Positions 13,812-57,653 of a stretch of 64,000 nt of DNA are shown piece by piece. The DNA comes from Bdellovibrionota bacterium (lineage in GTDB: Bacteria > Bdellovibrionota_C > UBA2361 > JAAYZI01), in contig JBMNIF010000003.1 in NCBI GenBank assembly GCA_050950765.1, forward strand, positions 512,001 through 576,000, written 5' to 3'. A model generated the notes under the pieces. That model saw nothing but the letters and a program-made list of their open reading frames with translations, was not told the DNA's origin and ran no database searches. The position numbers and the translations under genes are program-made. How positions within the stretch are numbered: position 1 is the first letter of the stretch; each line of letters starts with the position of its first letter.

Positions 13812-13948
13812 ATAAACAGAGATCGTGCGTGGTTTGCGTTATAAAAAAACTTTTAACCTCACCACATCACAATACAAACGGTTACCTTTTATCCTAAATA
13901 GAGATCGTGCGTGGTTTGCGTTATAAAAAAACTTTTAACCGCACCACA
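13802..13948. repeat. Tandem duplication of a ~60-bp hairpin-containing segment
   Basis: TTTATCCTAAATA(AACA)GAGATCGTGCGTGGTTTGCGTTATAAAAAAACTTTTAACCkCACCACA at 13802-13866 and 13888-13948. Confidence 0.9.
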
Positions 13949-30647: not shown

Positions 30648-30682
30648 CAAAAGCCCCGATCTAGATAATTTTACGGTCTTTG

Positions 30683-30852
30683 CCTCCGTAAAGATCTAGC
30701 TAATTTGCTTTTTAATAGCAGCCCGTCCTAGTATCCTTGAAGGGTGGCATTTTTTACCTCCGTACAGATCTAGCTGATTTATTTTTTAATATCAGCCCGT
30801 CCTAGTATCCTTGAAGGGTGGCATTTTTTACCTTCGTAAAGATCTAGCTGAT
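30683..30852. repeat. 74-bp tandem repeat (2 full copies plus a partial third)
   Basis: Units start CCTyCGTAmAGATCTAGCT at 30683, 30757, 30831; shared core CAGCCCGTCCTAGTATCCTTGAAGGGTGGCATTTTTTACCT. Confidence 0.92.
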
Positions 30853-31644
30853 CCTGTCTTCAGTTACAGCCCGTTCAACTGTCCCATAATAAGGGACTCC
30901 TTTATTTATGATATGACTGATATTTTTCGGTCTCATTAATCGCCACTTCGGATCATAACTATTATTGTCATGATCTCTTGAAAGATAGCGATCTGCTTTA
31001 GGGATATTTTTTTTGCATGTTTCAAAAAACAGATCGGAAAGTCCAAAAGAATCATTGAATTGTTCTAAGATAAATCCAGTTTTTTGATACAAAAATCCGA
31101 TATTGTAATTTTCTAAAGCAAGCAATAATTTATCTTCATCTAAAGAGGGAACTAATACAAGGCAACGTAAAAATTCTTCCAACCCTCCGATTTGATCAAT
31201 TGTATCGATGCTGTCGATGACGGTTTGCTCTAAATTTGTAACAGTAACACCTCTCAATTTTTCTGTTTGTACATCGCCTTTAGGAGCTTTACGTCGATAA
31301 GTGATTCCGTCATATTCAAAATCTTTAAAGCGGCTTTGTGTCGTTATATAAACTTCATAAAATACTTGATTGGCATAACCGTATATCTCAAACGCACTGT
31401 GGTGAGAGACACAGGCATCGGGGAACAAACGACTTCCTATTTCATAACGTGATAAAAGCGGCTGTTTATTTTCGATACTGATGACGACATAAAAATTATG
31501 GCGTACACGCTCGATGTAACCTTTTTTTTGATATTGTTGTAAAATGGTAGCTGTTGAATTATCTTTGAGATTTAACGCACTTGAAAGCTCACCACGAGAA
31601 AAGCTTCCCAGATCGACCATTCTTTCATAGTATTTCATGAACAA
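30844..31644 (-). CDS. AbiEi-family (type IV TA) antitoxin/transcriptional regulator
   Basis: N-terminal wHTH (KGYIERVRHNFY), VSHHSAFEIYG, VTNLEQTVIDSID, YQKTGFIL. Confidence 0.8.
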   Translation of the reverse strand: MFMKYYERMVDLGSFSRGELSSALNLKDNSTATILQQYQKKGYIERVRHNFYVVISIENKQPLLSRYEIGSRLFPDACVSHHSAFEIYGYANQVFYEVYITTQSRFKDFEYDGITYRRKAPKGDVQTEKLRGVTVTNLEQTVIDSIDTIDQIGGLEEFLRCLVLVPSLDEDKLLLALENYNIGFLYQKTGFILEQFNDSFGLSDLFFETCKKNIPKADRYLSRDHDNNSYDPKWRLMRPKNISHIINKGVPYYGTVERAVTEDRIS

Positions 31645-52536: not shown

Positions 52537-53151
52537 TTATAGCAACTTCTTTAAAGTTCTGTTGCTTTCAAGTTGAGGTCTAATATCTTTCAGGAGCTCT
52601 TCTGCATTCGGAGCTGCCACAAGAGCGGCTAGGCATCCTTGCACCTTTTTTGTACATCTAATCTCCTTTTTTAAAGCGCGGCACACTACATCTTTATAAA
52701 CTGCTAAGGCTGCATCGCAGTCTACTCCGAGGCACGTCAACGTATAGCCGATGGCAACACGAAAATCAGTTGCAAGCGGTTCTACATAATACTGTCTTCT
52801 TAAACACGGTATTCTTCCAGTTGTATCCAGCAGTTCAATCTGATCTAACAGCGCTCTCCTGACATTATCGGGGCAACTTCCCCCTTGTGATCGCATCTTT
52901 TCTCCTATCGTTTGCATTACCTGCAAAGCGGTTTTAACAACATCCATCGAATAAGCAAAAAGAGGGGGGATAGCAGCACTCAAAGCTTTTGGGTAATCAC
53001 TTTCATTTAAAAGATACTCCAACGCCTCAATTCTAAGATGAGGAGAGGTACGAGGTTTTAGGTCGTCAGCAACTGCTCCGAGTGCAAGACCTGGAAAGAG
53101 TGGAGTTGATGGAGGGTTTCCTTGTGATTGTTCTGTTCTGGGATTATTCAA
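52537..53151 (-). CDS. Hypothetical protein
   Basis: 204-aa ORF; GGGAG upstream of TTG start. Confidence 0.55.
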   Translation of the reverse strand: MNNPRTEQSQGNPPSTPLFPGLALGAVADDLKPRTSPHLRIEALEYLLNESDYPKALSAAIPPLFAYSMDVVKTALQVMQTIGEKMRSQGGSCPDNVRRALLDQIELLDTTGRIPCLRRQYYVEPLATDFRVAIGYTLTCLGVDCDAALAVYKDVVCRALKKEIRCTKKVQGCLAALVAAPNAEELLKDIRPQLESNRTLKKLL

Positions 53152-53339: not shown

Positions 53340-54704
53340 GTGAAAATGGAAATGAACATTCTTAAAGAGCAAGATCCTGAGATTTATGCAATTATAAAAG
53401 GTGAGGAAGAGAGACAACAAAACAAGTTGTCGATGATCGCATCAGAGAACTTTACATCACCCGCTATTCGTCAAGCGTTGGGCTCCGTCCTCACTCATAA
53501 ATATTCAGAAGGATACTCAGGGGCTCGTTATTACGAAGGTAACGCTTTTATCGATCAACTTGAAGACCTCACCATTGAACGTGCTAAAAAAGCTTTTAAG
53601 TTACCAGAAGATTGGGGTGCTAACGTTCAGACGCTTTCCGGTAGTCCAGCTAACTTAGCCGTTATGTTAGGGCTTTTAGAGCCTGGTGACACTATCTTCG
53701 GTATGTACCTGTCGGACGGAGGTCACCTCTCTCACGGCTGGTCGTATGAGCCGAAGAGTACAAAAAATGACCCGAATGATATGTTATATACAGGGGGAAG
53801 TAGAAAGGTAAATGTTACTTCAAAGTTCTTCCGTGCCTTTCAATACAAAACAGACCCGAAGACGAAGCTTTTTGATTGGGATGCCGTAGAAAAGATGGCT
53901 TTGGAGATTAAGCCTAAATTAATCATCACTGGCGGCACCGCTTATCCGCGTGAGATAGATTATAAACGTGTAAAAGTTATCGCTGATAAGGTCGGAGCGT
54001 ATTACTTAGCAGACATTGCGCATGAAGCAGGATTGGTTGCTGCGGGAGTGAACGCTTCTCCCGTTGGAATTGCAGATGTTGTTACCTTTACAACGCACAA
54101 AACGTTACGTTGTAACCGTGGAGCTATTATCTTAGCCCGCCAAGATCTCCTAAAGAAGATCAATCGCGCTGTCTTTCCTGGATTACAAGGTGGACCTCAT
54201 AACCACAGCATGGCTGGTATCGCTGTCGGATTAAAAGAGACTATGACCCCACAATTCAAAGAGTATGCGGCTCAAGTTGTTAAGAATGCTCAAACGCTTG
54301 CTGCTGAATTGGAAAAACTGGGATTCTCTATCGTTTCTGGCGGTACTGACAAACACCTTGTTTTAATAGATTTAACAAACAAAGGTGTTTTCGGAAGAAA
54401 GTTTGCTCGTGCCTTAGATCATGCTGGTATAGTGGCAAATATGAATACAATGCCGCAAGAGACTCGTCCACCATCTGACCCTTCCGGACTTCGCATCGGC
54501 ACCGCTTGGGTAACCACACGTGGGATGAAGGAAGCTGAGATGAAAACTATCGCCGCTTTTTACAATAAAGTTATGGAGATCATTAAGCAGTGGAACGATC
54601 TTGAGTTTGAGGAGTTTGAAAAAGCAGTTAAAGGTAGTGCCGAGATCGCTGCTATTGCAGCAGATGTTAAAGCACTCTGTGCGAAGTTCCCGTTAAATAT
54701 ATAA
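53340..54704 (+). CDS. glyA: Serine hydroxymethyltransferase
   Basis: IASEN, KYSEGY...RYY, GGHLSHG, TTHKTLR, FPGLQGGP, SGLRIGT. Confidence 0.97.
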   Translation: MKMEMNILKEQDPEIYAIIKGEEERQQNKLSMIASENFTSPAIRQALGSVLTHKYSEGYSGARYYEGNAFIDQLEDLTIERAKKAFKLPEDWGANVQTLSGSPANLAVMLGLLEPGDTIFGMYLSDGGHLSHGWSYEPKSTKNDPNDMLYTGGSRKVNVTSKFFRAFQYKTDPKTKLFDWDAVEKMALEIKPKLIITGGTAYPREIDYKRVKVIADKVGAYYLADIAHEAGLVAAGVNASPVGIADVVTFTTHKTLRCNRGAIILARQDLLKKINRAVFPGLQGGPHNHSMAGIAVGLKETMTPQFKEYAAQVVKNAQTLAAELEKLGFSIVSGGTDKHLVLIDLTNKGVFGRKFARALDHAGIVANMNTMPQETRPPSDPSGLRIGTAWVTTRGMKEAEMKTIAAFYNKVMEIIKQWNDLEFEEFEKAVKGSAEIAAIAADVKALCAKFPLNI

Positions 54705-54833
54705 GTTAGTTATATAATTACAGGATAGTTTTTTAAAAAAGAGGTGGGGGAAAGATATTTTAAATAAAGTTTCTCCTGCCTTTTTAGTTTGAGATATTCT
54801 TAAAAAGTTGTGCTATAAATCAAAATAAAATAT

Positions 54834-55021
54834 TGTCCTAAGTGACGTTCTTTTTAAATCAGGTACGGTAGATTTTTATTAGGCTTCGGTTTAAACAGTG
54901 CTTAAGTTTTTAGTGTTGTTTAAACCGGAAGCTTTAGAGAAAAATGTTTTTCTATTGAATAAGGTTCTATCGTTCGTTAACAAAGTTACAAATCCTCATT
55001 TGCCGTTTGACGGCTAGAAAA
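54834..55021 (+). repeat. Conserved structured leader, copy 1 (candidate cis-regulatory/ncRNA)
   Basis: 54834-54934 is 99/101 identical to 55943-56043; 54992-55021 identical to 56099-56128; several hairpins. Confidence 0.9.
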
Positions 55022-55039
55022 AAAATTGAGGTAAAAAAG

Positions 55040-55648
55040 ATGGACAACCACAAATCCCTTACTCCTCAAGACCTTTTAAGGGAACTTAAAAGTCTTGCAA
55101 TAGAGAAGGAATCGAACAATCGTACAATAATTAACGGTCATGACGATTGTTCGATACTTGACGCAGCAGAATTGGAGGGTGTTACTGCGATACCTGACGC
55201 AGCAGAATGCGAGGGTGTTACAACAGTCTACTCTTTTCAGGGAAAGGTACAACCTAGGCTTGTTGCTCTTTTAGGAAATCCTTGTAGAAAGTCTTATGAT
55301 GCCTTTCGAGATAAGCTTGCATGTCGCGACGGATTCCCTAAAGGTCTTTCGCCTGTGGACGTGTTGGCTTCGTCGCTCAGTTTCAACGAGGGCTTTCCAG
55401 CGCTCCGTAGAGCGATAGATGAAGCGATGGCGGAAGACTATTGTCTAAGGGAATCCTTCCCAATTCCAGCTCACCTTAAGATGCATGTCAACACAATCAC
55501 GGGGAAGATTAACGCTTCAAAAGATCTGGTGTCGAAAAATCTTCTGAAGATCATCCCTGCCAGTCAACTAGACGACTTCCTCTATGGCTGCTTCGTCAAT
55601 GTACGAAAAATATACGCCTACTTAAAACTCGGTCTCATATTCCCCTAG
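55040..55648 (+). CDS. Orphan protein A1 (202 aa), distant paralog of A2
   Basis: GAGG RBS plus ATG 55040; KVQPRLVALLGNP…FPAL…LLKIIP…DFL. Confidence 0.7.
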   Translation: MDNHKSLTPQDLLRELKSLAIEKESNNRTIINGHDDCSILDAAELEGVTAIPDAAECEGVTTVYSFQGKVQPRLVALLGNPCRKSYDAFRDKLACRDGFPKGLSPVDVLASSLSFNEGFPALRRAIDEAMAEDYCLRESFPIPAHLKMHVNTITGKINASKDLVSKNLLKIIPASQLDDFLYGCFVNVRKIYAYLKLGLIFP

Positions 55649-55729
55649 CGTGGTTCTTTATGTTGGCTTCTCATGTAATGAATAGCAACTAGGAACCCCC
55701 TTGCGGAGCCGAACACTGCGAGTATAAAT

Positions 55730-55779
55730 CCGAGAGGTTTTTTAGATTAAGGTTTTACCTTCTTCGAAAAGCTTCTCGG
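55730..55779 (+). terminator. 3' hairpin of cassette A1
   Basis: CCGAGAGGTTTT…AAAAGCTTCTCGG. Confidence 0.65.
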
Positions 55780-55813
55780 TTTCGCCTATTATCTAAAAAC
55801 ACTAATAAAAATC

Positions 55814-55852
55814 ATACCAATTCAGCAAATGTTGCTGATGCTTCTTTGGCTA
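55814..55852. repeat. 39-bp exact duplicate of ybaK 3' end (57194-57232)
   Basis: ATACCAATTCAGCAAATGTTGCTGATGCTTCTTTGGCTA at both sites. Confidence 0.93.
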
Positions 55853-55942
55853 AAGCTTTTAAAAAATCTTTCAATTAATTGGAACACTCTTTTGAGTTGC
55901 AATAAAAATCAACATAGAATAGCATCTAAAGCGTTTCTGATA

Positions 55943-56128
55943 TGTCCTAAGTGACGTTCTTTTTAAATCAGGTACGGTAGATTTTTATTGGGCTTCGGTT
56001 CAAACAGTGCTTAAGTTTTTAGTGTTGTTTAAACCGGAAGCTTAAAAGAAAGAAATTTCTTACTACGGTTTTATCGTTACTGTTAACGAAAACTATTGAT
56101 CCTCATTTGCCGTTTGACGGCTAGAAAA
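55943..56128 (+). repeat. Conserved structured leader, copy 2
   Basis: See copy 1; preceded by TTGAGT-N17-TAGAAT (55892-55920), a sigma70-like promoter. Confidence 0.9.
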
Positions 56129-56137
56129 GGAACCAGA

Positions 56138-56776
56138 GTGACAAGTGAACTTAACGCTCTCTCGGATCGTGAAGCTCGTTTGAAACTTTTGGAGGAGCGT
56201 CGGCACCAAGAAAAAAGGTTCCTTAGGAACCTTGACAATTGGTTCAAACGCATCGAACAGGGCAGGAAAAAGAACGCTAAACGCGCTCGGAGTAAGGGAA
56301 AGAACACTAAACATAAACCACTTGCTCTTTCGCAAAAGATGCAGGATAGGCTTGTTGAACTTCTCGAAGAACCTTCTAAAGGATGGTATACTGAAATTCG
56401 AAAGATCCTTGCCAATCCATCTCGTTTAGAGATTTTCGCCGCCGCACTCGATCCGAAAAAATTCCCAACGCTCTACGAAAAGATAAAAAAATCTTCTTTG
56501 TGGAACGCGAATTCGGGTGAATCAACTGAGGAGAATGGATTAAATTATCATAAAATCCATTCCTGCGTAATAAGTAACGCGGAGAGGTGGTCGAGACACC
56601 TTTTGGGGAGTATCCCTTCAGGTAAGCGATGCGATTTTATGTGCCTCCTTGTCGTAGAATGGAAACATTACTACCTAGACGTTCTATCTTCTCTCTTGCG
56701 GAAGTATGAAAACCCAAACACTAAAGCGTTAATCGAGCGTGCGCTTGCTAGAACTAGGAGCTCTTTACTGAGCTAA
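56138..56776 (+). CDS. Orphan protein A2 (212 aa), basic N-terminus
   Basis: AAGGA RBS plus GTG 56138; KMQDRLVELLEEP…FPTL…LLGSIP…DFM. Confidence 0.7.
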   Translation: MTSELNALSDREARLKLLEERRHQEKRFLRNLDNWFKRIEQGRKKNAKRARSKGKNTKHKPLALSQKMQDRLVELLEEPSKGWYTEIRKILANPSRLEIFAAALDPKKFPTLYEKIKKSSLWNANSGESTEENGLNYHKIHSCVISNAERWSRHLLGSIPSGKRCDFMCLLVVEWKHYYLDVLSSLLRKYENPNTKALIERALARTRSSLLS

Positions 56777-56785
56777 GCAAATTGA

Positions 56786-56833
56786 GGATCGAGAAGGTTT
56801 TGTTGAGAAATGCTTTCGAAAGCTTCTCGGTCC
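56786..56833 (+). terminator. 3' hairpin of cassette A2
   Basis: GGATCGAGAAG…CTTCTCGGTCC; related to 55730-55779. Confidence 0.65.
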
Positions 56834-57191
56834 CAGTTTAAAAAAAGCCTAATAAAGATCATATTTGCCTGTCTCTGATCAAACCAAAACTTTTCCCCTT
56901 TACGTATGTTAAGAGGTGATATCCTCCATTATTAAGACGTAACTCCTTTCTTTTATCTCGATATTTTTTTGCCCAATTAGGGAGATTTTTACTTTCTTTT
57001 TCATACCTAAATACGTATGCCAAAACAGCAGAACAGTTAACCCCTTTTATCACTAATTTTTAAAAGATCTCTATCAGTTATAACAATATTGCTATTTTAT
57101 AGTTACGTAAATTACAGAAAAGTTTTGTGCTAAAAGGAAGGCAAAAGCGAAGCTCTTCCTTAACTTCCTAACGGAGAAATCAAAACAAAGC

Positions 57192-57653
57192 CTATACCAA
57201 TTCAGCAAATGTTGCTGATGCTTCTTTGGCTAGATCTTTTGCTGCTATTCGGATCTGTAAGCCACGTTGTCCTGCACTAACAACGATCCACTCAAAATTA
57301 TTGGCGGTGTTATCAATAAAAACTGGTAGCCGTTTCTTACTACCCAGCGGAGAACAACCCCCTTTTAAATACCCCGTTAAACGTTGCATCTCACTAATAG
57401 CCGCTAAATCACACCTCTTACACCCCCAAACAGTAGCAACCTTTTTTAAGTTCAACTCATGCTCAGAAGAGAGGAGCGCCATCGCAAATTCTTTTTTATC
57501 ACTCTCCAAAACTAAAGTTTTAAAAACTTGCGCAGCAGGTATCTCCAACTTTTCAACAACTTCCTGCGCTGTAAAGTCAACCGCCTTAAAAGATAATACT
57601 TCAAAAGCACACTTGGCTTTAGTCAAAATCTCAATAGCTTGCGTCTGTTTCAT
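57192..57653 (-). CDS. ybaK: Cys-tRNA(Pro) deacylase YbaK/EbsC
   Basis: VFKTLV, TGYLKGGCSPLG, VSAGQRG. Confidence 0.92.
   Translation of the reverse strand: MKQTQAIEILTKAKCAFEVLSFKAVDFTAQEVVEKLEIPAAQVFKTLVLESDKKEFAMALLSSEHELNLKKVATVWGCKRCDLAAISEMQRLTGYLKGGCSPLGSKKRLPVFIDNTANNFEWIVVSAGQRGLQIRIAAKDLAKEASATFAELV

Follow-up and report, generated by a model that had tools for sequence, protein, structure and literature searches.

Two tandem orphan genes enclosed by conserved, complementary flanks in a Bdellovibrionota genome: candidate self-silencing messages for a hypervariable protein family

We analyzed a 64,000-nucleotide (nt) stretch of a Bdellovibrionota genome, hereafter the window (G000:C3:512001-576000; window positions are counted from its first letter), in which two units of ~0.95 kb each are flanked by glyA and ybaK. 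The host genome, G000, is 2.64 Mb long and 94% complete and is present in sequencing runs from bioreactors and anaerobic digesters; the units themselves are present in DNA runs. In such designations C1, C2 and C3 following "G000:" or "G008:" are contigs, and C1, C2a-C2d and C3a standing alone are families of frames, the term used here for the conserved sequence on either side of a gene. An initial annotation had described the two units as tandem copies of one layout, consisting of a leader, an open reading frame (ORF), a 3' hairpin and a CTAATAAARATCATA block (block A), and we confirmed this arrangement at 54834-55818 and 55943-56871 (Table 1).

The same annotation had noted that non-coding DNA is more conserved here than coding DNA. 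Re-measurement gave the same figures, with 99/101 identical positions in the first leader block and 30/30 in the block preceding the ribosome-binding site (RBS), and the ORF DNA of the two genes, p1 and p2, is no more similar than shuffled sequence (341/706, 48% versus 47% in shuffles). Identity is 36/60 in the leader segment between the two conserved blocks and 69/168 across the trailers. At the protein level p1 and p2 align by BLASTP with 24% identity over 153 aa (E 2e-5). A hairpin, H1, is predicted in both leaders (z -2.3 and -1.9) and another, H2, in both trailers (z -3.3 and -3.4).

Table 1. Features of the two-unit locus, its neighbors and the host rRNA operon. SD, Shine-Dalgarno sequence; MITE, miniature inverted-repeat transposable element.
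Feature	Position	Strand	Description and basis
glyA (serine hydroxymethyltransferase)	53340..54704	+	left neighbor; NCBIfam NF000586, E 3e-149
Possible sigma-70 promoter, unit 1	54789..54819	+	TTGAGA, 19 nt, extended TG-n-TATAAA; by eye; absent from consensus-scan list
Conserved leader block, unit 1	54834..54934	+	small hairpin, rRNA-leader-like motif, closing-helix 5' strand, long hairpin H1 (~54882-54932); folds and identity
Degenerate 16S-leader motif copy, unit 1	54855..54874	+	similarity scoring against 1143 control upstream regions
Variable leader segment, unit 1	54935..54991	+	first hairpin retained with different letters
Pre-RBS block and SD, unit 1	54992..55031	+	30-nt block 54992-55021 (anti-SD TCCTCA and GCCGT hairpin); SD TGAGG 55027-55031, predicted paired
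ORF p1	55040..55648	+	202 aa
Trailer, unit 1	55649..55818	+	hairpin H2 (~55730-55780), block B 55768-55780, block A 55802-55816
Duplicated ybaK 3' end	55814..55860	-	fused to trailer 1; terminator-like hairpin 55822-55838 on + strand
Sigma-70-like promoter, unit 2	55892..55920	+	TTGAGT-17-TAGAAT; consensus scan
Leader, unit 2	55943..56137	+	conserved block 55943-56043, motif-like 55964-55983, pre-RBS block 56099-56128
ORF p2	56138..56776	+	212 aa
Trailer, unit 2	56777..56871	+	H2, block B 56819-56831, block A 56849-56863
Decayed MITE, IS1634-type	~56883..57131	not assigned	many genomic matches; separate from the units
ybaK (Cys-tRNA(Pro) deacylase)	57192..57653	-	right neighbor; TIGR00011 above cut-off
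Motif sites of the host rRNA operon	G000:C1:432972 and G000:C1:434913		

The frame had further been called self-complementary, and this was borne out by comparison with shuffled sequence. Block A matches the leader strand before H1, a match equaled in 0 (unit 1) and 1 (unit 2) of 1000 shuffles, and block B (AAAGCTTCTCGGT) matches the 3' arm of H1, equaled in 2 and 10 of 1000; jointly, the two matches were reached in 0/1000 shuffles in each unit. It is the longest conserved trailer blocks that complement the leader, the remaining trailer segments tested do not. The predicted closing helix spans 16 bp in unit 1 (54867-54882 with 55802-55818; pair probabilities 0.95-1.0 in the fold of the full unit) and 26 bp in unit 2 (55969-55995 with the trailer up to 56871; probabilities mostly 0.7-1.0). 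Two differences between the units fall inside the shared helix, and they turn A-U into G-U and U-A into U-G. The SD is predicted to be paired in both units, its core bases being unpaired with a probability of at most 0.1, and the alternative pairing in the predicted folds amounts to -19.6 and -16.8 kcal/mol. The predicted fold of the whole unit is branched, with 63-64% of bases paired and energies of -296 and -278 kcal/mol for the two units (averages over 12 shuffles of each, -252 and -233), and circular folding was no better. The ORFs alone give z -3.0 and -2.7 versus -0.3 to -1.4 for four neighbor genes. Judged from these alignments and folds, leader and trailer probably form a selected pairing between the ends of one mRNA.

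Both p1 and p2 are predicted to be soluble, p1 with an acidic and p2 with a basic helical N-terminus. A HMMER search of 1.84 billion representatives added one protein to the family, P0003 (173 aa, E 7e-12), 32-36% identical to p1 and p2; four further matches were repetitive proteins and were judged spurious. N-termini vary in length and charge across the family, and no member (173-212 aa) has a hydrophobic or membrane segment (maximum 19-residue hydropathy 0.9-1.15). A 36-bp tandem repeat inside p1 (window 55152-55221) gives rise to an acidic N-terminal extension that P0003 lacks. The AlphaFold2 model of P0003 is compact and all-helical (pLDDT 76, pTM 0.75), that of p2 was unusable (pLDDT 46). 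Comparison of the P0003 model with known structures gave no convincing match (best Z 5.2, rmsd 4.8 over 111 aligned residues; no Foldseek E below 0.59). Searches of Pfam, NCBIfam, PADLOC, PHROGs and PDB sequences gave no family match for p1 and p2, and those that also covered P0003 gave none for it either. Matches in the ESM Atlas stayed below 0.9, with TM below 0.5 by query, word-index protein searches returned only the query's own cluster, and profile searches gave no TLC or VirB4 match, the TLC positive control likewise giving none. The cargo proteins form a real, fast-changing and hypervariable all-helical family, for whose confidently predicted fold no counterpart was found among known structures; that they are toxic to self or to an invader is a tentative suggestion.

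In RNA contig 11 of run X14 the P0003 gene lies behind the end of the unit 1 leader (54964-55024, 1 difference), and in runs X14 and X19, which belong to two studies, P0003 sequence flanks a 32-nt near-identical patch common to p1; the loose contig ends of P0003 were translated by eye. RNA-library contigs cover p1 in X14 and X19 and p2 in X14. An allele of p2 in DNA run X12 carries 11 changes, 9 of them non-synonymous and 2 synonymous, confined to 56414-56642 (229 nt) in a patchy pattern (cluster p 0.0006). For comparison, an SPFH gene in X12 shows 1 non-synonymous and 5 synonymous changes (Fisher p 0.035 versus p2). Over 55914-56247 the X12 allele has a single base changed, and its sequence upstream of 55914 is different. 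A pN/pS of ~1.2 shows that purifying selection on p2 is apparently lacking, with positive selection not proven.

Searches for relatives of the frame returned two copies in the host genome and none in the 90 other genomes of the order, either by DNA search or by protein profile. A DNA search of 40 relatives gave short, chance-level matches only, in five of them, and a leader covariance model run on 57 other genomes gave one weak match that was dismissed on inspection. The frame was not found in viral contigs or in phage and plasmid collections, and none of the at least 120 metagenome loci among the matches listed for a 16-nt pattern was related. An Rfam scan of the units returned chance matches only (E 3 or worse), in line with the earlier remark that the leader was not recognized as a known RNA family. 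It had also been remarked that two solitary copies, if they lacked covariation and transcription, would point to recent gene conversion of a promoter region. The copy number agrees with this, but simple promoter conversion does not account for the locus: the trailers complement the leaders, the differences inside the closing helix are of G-U type, a third protein allele stands behind the same leader end, and the X12 changes in p2 are 9:2 non-synonymous to synonymous.

Self-comparison of the host genome uncovered six further arrays, whose frames and orphan cargo are unrelated, which brings the total to at least seven families. The two-unit frame is therefore not a unique system. Among 25 further framed ORFs, none reached the Pfam cut-off or had a meaningful PHROG match, in searches for which some start codons were placed too early (for example in C2c). 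Leaders pair best with their own trailers in four families including the two-unit locus (median 29.5-32.5 versus a mean of 20.8, sd 2.9, n = 374, for non-cognate pairs), and no better than background in the other three. In one C2c member, judged by eye, a C-G pair of the leader-trailer helix has become T-A. A whole C2c unit is present in G008, a genome of another bacterial family (G008:C2:39900-41020; 1/90 genomes), with a frame 81-84% identical and cargo 25% identical (E 3.5e-4) to G000, and it adjoins other DNA shared with G000 at 90-95%; this evidence of transfer concerns the sister family C2c, not the two-unit locus. The C1 frame was not found in the five genomes searched. For C3a, searched in 72 genomes, none was found either, a single match inside a housekeeping gene having been discarded.

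Solitary C1 or C2c frame members also occur outside the arrays (G000:C1:50910-51650, C2:1226813-1227980 and C3:375392-376020), each with the motif core described below and a different orphan ORF. Strong leader-trailer complementarity was seen around single genes at G000:C2:50665-51489, C2:169711-170667, C1:35113-35592, C2:322947-323408 and C3:665466-665789; the first two have a common frame and are membrane-protein-like.

Several frames share a sequence with ribosomal RNA leaders. A motif with the consensus RACAATYNGGTTATGGGTAGAAG is present in 29/29 of the relatives' 16S leaders examined, which are the best-scoring among 61 other genomes with a 16S match. In the host rRNA operon (6.5 kb examined) it occurs exactly twice, once upstream of the 16S processing helix and once within the spacer, and it is contained in 3/12 partly covered 16S-23S spacers; full canonical boxA was found in 1/29 of the relatives' 16S leaders. 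An exact 15-nt pattern occurs in 51/91 genomes. Outside G000, 50 of its 55 matches lie at a 16S gene (compared by eye), and 3 of the 4 matches within G000 precede cassettes of family C2c, the only frames with the exact rRNA motif. The core RGTAGA(A/T)(G/T) is found in the leaders of 5/7 frame families and is near background genome-wide (52 sense, 39 antisense). Each site was scored by the share of 1143 control upstream regions that match the relatives' rRNA sites equally well. This share was 0 for C2c, 0.001-0.006 for C1, 0.006 for C2a, 0.035 for C2b (two of three units), 0.05 for the two-unit locus, 0.05-0.08 for C3a and 0.2-0.97 for C2d, so that 6/7 families have a member at p <=0.05, the 0.05 match of C3a being another stretch than its motif-like site (0.08). 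The two best-scoring controls turned out to be further frame members.

E. coli carries boxA at both of these places, leader and spacer, and the element has been proposed to keep the leader poised for the trailer (PMC10250234); uses outside rRNA are known for suhB and CRISPR arrays (PMC13753749). From its position we infer that the order-wide motif RACAATYNGGTTATGGGTAGAAG is a boxA equivalent, possibly an undescribed one; the open literature, supplements and subscription papers being outside our scope, yielded no description of the motif or of such cassettes. Genes for nusB, Rho and RNase III are present in the host genome. As far as sequence comparison goes, a borrowed rRNA-leader signal is convincing for the sister frames and doubtful at the two-unit locus, where we lean slightly against the motif being functional. 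In the same operon, no tRNA was called in the host 16S-23S spacer (G000:C1:434682-435394, 718 nt), and a search with a short 5S pattern did not detect a 5S gene downstream of the host 23S.

We favor, with a probability of roughly 55%, the interpretation that the units are self-silencing mRNAs for hypervariable proteins whose alleles are swapped by homologous recombination. The conserved frame is best understood as the two ends, 5' and 3', of the mRNA that encodes the cargo and not as a separate RNA, and each unit would be transcribed on its own to express a single member of this tiny hypervariable all-helical family. During transcription, H1 and the anti-SD hairpin are predicted to hold the message untranslated. 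Once the trailer emerges, the 16-26-bp helix would close the ORF in a loop, and block B would be able to exchange partners with the 3' arm of H1. Such an untranslated message would have to be shielded from Rho, and a Nus complex may be loaded, as at an rRNA operon, by the degenerate rRNA-leader motif that lies at the base of the helix; translation would afterwards be turned on by refolding or by trimming of the 3' end. The frozen flanks would permit ordinary homologous recombination to swap, patch and stack cargo alleles, and the tandem with its ybaK fragment would most simply be a captured second allele. The initial annotation had imagined a functional RNA or recombination scaffold with fast-diversifying cargo. 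Of this, a structured, selected frame and diversifying cargo are supported, whereas neither an RNA-derived element nor a mobile cassette that brings its own machinery is.

Several points weigh against this interpretation. The RNA contigs carry no strand, end or level information and may stem from DNA carry-over, and among the RNA-contig matches listed none covers 54834-54963. The pN/pS of p2 cannot separate positive from relaxed selection, and the contigs compared for its alleles possibly come from more than one strain. The available frames, two plus a 61-nt piece, are too few for an analysis of covariation; the closing helix has zero two-sided changes, and the leader difference at 54892/56001 breaks one H1 pair. 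By a looser criterion, a leader-trailer helix reaching 16 bp in the minimum-energy structure was obtained in 9/23 units versus 78/486 controls (486 of 649 control genes counted), a modest enrichment among units that are not mutually independent, and unit 1 taken alone has an unremarkable strict pairing score of 25. The motif at the locus is weak, equaled by 5.0% of the 1143 controls; the last two letters of its core (T) differ from all 25 distinct rRNA sites, and the motif was first spotted in the cassettes. The rRNA link for the two-unit locus alone is weak, and the case depends on the sister families.

A bolder extension, which we consider unlikely, holds that dangerous or weapon-like orphan proteins are kept as silent mRNAs in an "rRNA mode" and that the frames are enzyme-free cassettes, defined by RNA architecture, that move between families. 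A putative lineage-specific boxA would load Nus factors, allowing polymerase to cross the untranslated message and deliver the leader to the trailer; later refolding or trimming would free translation, and cargo would be exchanged while frames travel.

Among the alternatives to self-silencing mRNAs, the one that survives best, although also improbable, is that the flanks are homogenized by recombination, like the scaffold of PeSL cassettes, with pairing that is incidental or mRNA-stabilizing and cargo that is an ordinarily expressed arms-race protein. Such a scaffold agrees with the presence of two copies only, with the ybaK fragment (45/47 identical to the original), with the patchy allele differences and the p1/P0003 patch, and with the frequency of long helices arising by chance. 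It does not explain why conservation tracks the predicted helices block by block, with divergence in the mid-leader segment and over most of the trailer but retention of the two complementary trailer blocks, or why the sister frame is conserved across two bacterial families around diverged cargo.

Type I toxins are typically small, hydrophobic membrane peptides. We regard as rather less likely still a type I toxin-antitoxin system with an oversized toxin, in which 5'-3' pairing silences, 3' processing activates and an antisense RNA over the variable leader neutralizes. The predicted mRNA logic is that of hok and aapA (PMC6733600), and the paired SD with its alternative pairing, the tandem copies and the unit-specific leader segment fit as well. 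The length of the proteins and their lack of a hydrophobic segment speak against it, and on the minus strand opposite the leader the consensus scan listed neither a promoter nor a terminator.

Very little probability remains for a non-autonomous DNA cassette, that is a MITE or mobile insertion cassette with block A as terminal inverted repeat, or a circle-forming or RNA-derived element. A 12-16-nt inverted match does lie at the unit ends, a sister frame family exists in a second bacterial family, and a DNA contig of run X9 joins 57193 to 55814, which equals a 1380-bp circle or a head-to-tail junction; this junction, of depth 4, is ambiguous, as 39 letters agree with either side, and the assembler may have joined the two wrongly. 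The units have no target-site duplication, no copies beyond the two were found in the genome or in 90 others of the order, conserved sequence extends ~33 nt beyond the inverted match, and the differences are of G-U type. No RVT_1 (PF00078) match was found in the 94% complete genome, by a search that detected 3/14 controls, and the three tyrosine recombinases all stand beside tRNAs, the nearest ~250 kb away. These three (G000:C2:471421, C2:1062602 and C3:312627) are the only tyrosine-recombinase matches in the genome, with no obvious XerC/XerD pair. Least credible of all is an independent trans-acting small RNA with the ORF as bystander, for which the near-invariant 101 nt and strong H1 would speak, since no U-tract terminator follows H1, the best partners of the leader are the trailer blocks of its own unit, and no RNA contig among the matches listed covers the leader.

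The consensus scan found 4 sigma-70-like sites versus 5.0 expected by chance; because this count is no higher than chance, it is position that points to the putative unit 2 promoter. The decayed MITE before ybaK has full-length relatives with a 472-aa transposase and 6-bp duplications, which we take to belong to the IS1634 family. Elsewhere in the window, 30679-30900 holds three tandem 74-nt copies with an 11-bp repeat core that is abundant in the genome and absent from the two-unit locus. A pair of 54-nt direct repeats lies at 13813-13948, and a 204-aa ORF without Pfam match (52537-53151, minus strand) is divergent from glyA.

What is new here is the existence of at least seven unrelated frame families, most with a non-canonical rRNA-leader motif, one of them found whole in another bacterial family. 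Self-silencing mRNAs would offer a mechanism for a recurrent pattern in uncultured bacteria, in which non-coding flanks outlast the enclosed genes in conservation. The order-wide element is a testable sequence, apparently borrowed by several orphan-gene frames, and if it recruits Nus factors, both the definition of boxA and the uses of the rRNA transcription machinery would broaden.

Compared with known systems, the units lack both the target-site duplication and the dispersed copies of a MITE or mobile insertion cassette. Unlike the genes of an integron array they have their own promoter-like site and 200-nt leader, with the nearest recombinase far off by a tRNA. A diversity-generating retroelement, retron or group II intron is not indicated, the host genome having no reverse transcriptase match, and the branched fold and presence in DNA differ from the rod of an Obelisk or viroid-like RNA. 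The hbs mRNA of Bacillus subtilis similarly has a 14-bp helix that joins its untranslated regions and controls nuclease access (PMC5737220); hbs is conserved and strongly translated, whereas the cargo here is hypervariable and its SD predicted to be masked. In the pre-16S leader (rrnTAC; PMC10250234, PMC13753749) a short conserved element follows the promoter closely and sits at the base of an RNA-enclosing helix; the units have a candidate counterpart, and the order's element stands in leader and spacer as boxA does. A leader-trailer helix of this enclosing kind is predicted in both units (16 and 26 bp). They differ in that a protein gene is enclosed, that the element RACAATYNGGTTATGGGTAGAAG is unlike E. 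coli or Bacillus boxA, with a putative Nus link, and that at the locus it is degenerate and incorporated into the helix. Likenesses are also found in the hok/Sok and aapA/IsoA mRNAs (PMC6733600), which have SD-masking hairpins, long-range 5'-3' pairing, alternative partners and tandem copies, and in the PeSL cassettes of T4-type phages, where conserved promoter and stem-loop flanks surround orphan genes shuffled by recombination, possibly through mini-circles (PMC2839356). SD masking and 5'-3' pairing are predicted in the units as well, but their soluble 173-212-aa cargo is not a short membrane peptide; compared with PeSL, they are chromosomal and have long, family-specific flanks that are complementary across the ORF instead of one short promoter-terminator repeat. 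In summary, the units resemble type I toxin mRNAs and PeSL cassettes, yet fall outside the type I class and differ from PeSL.

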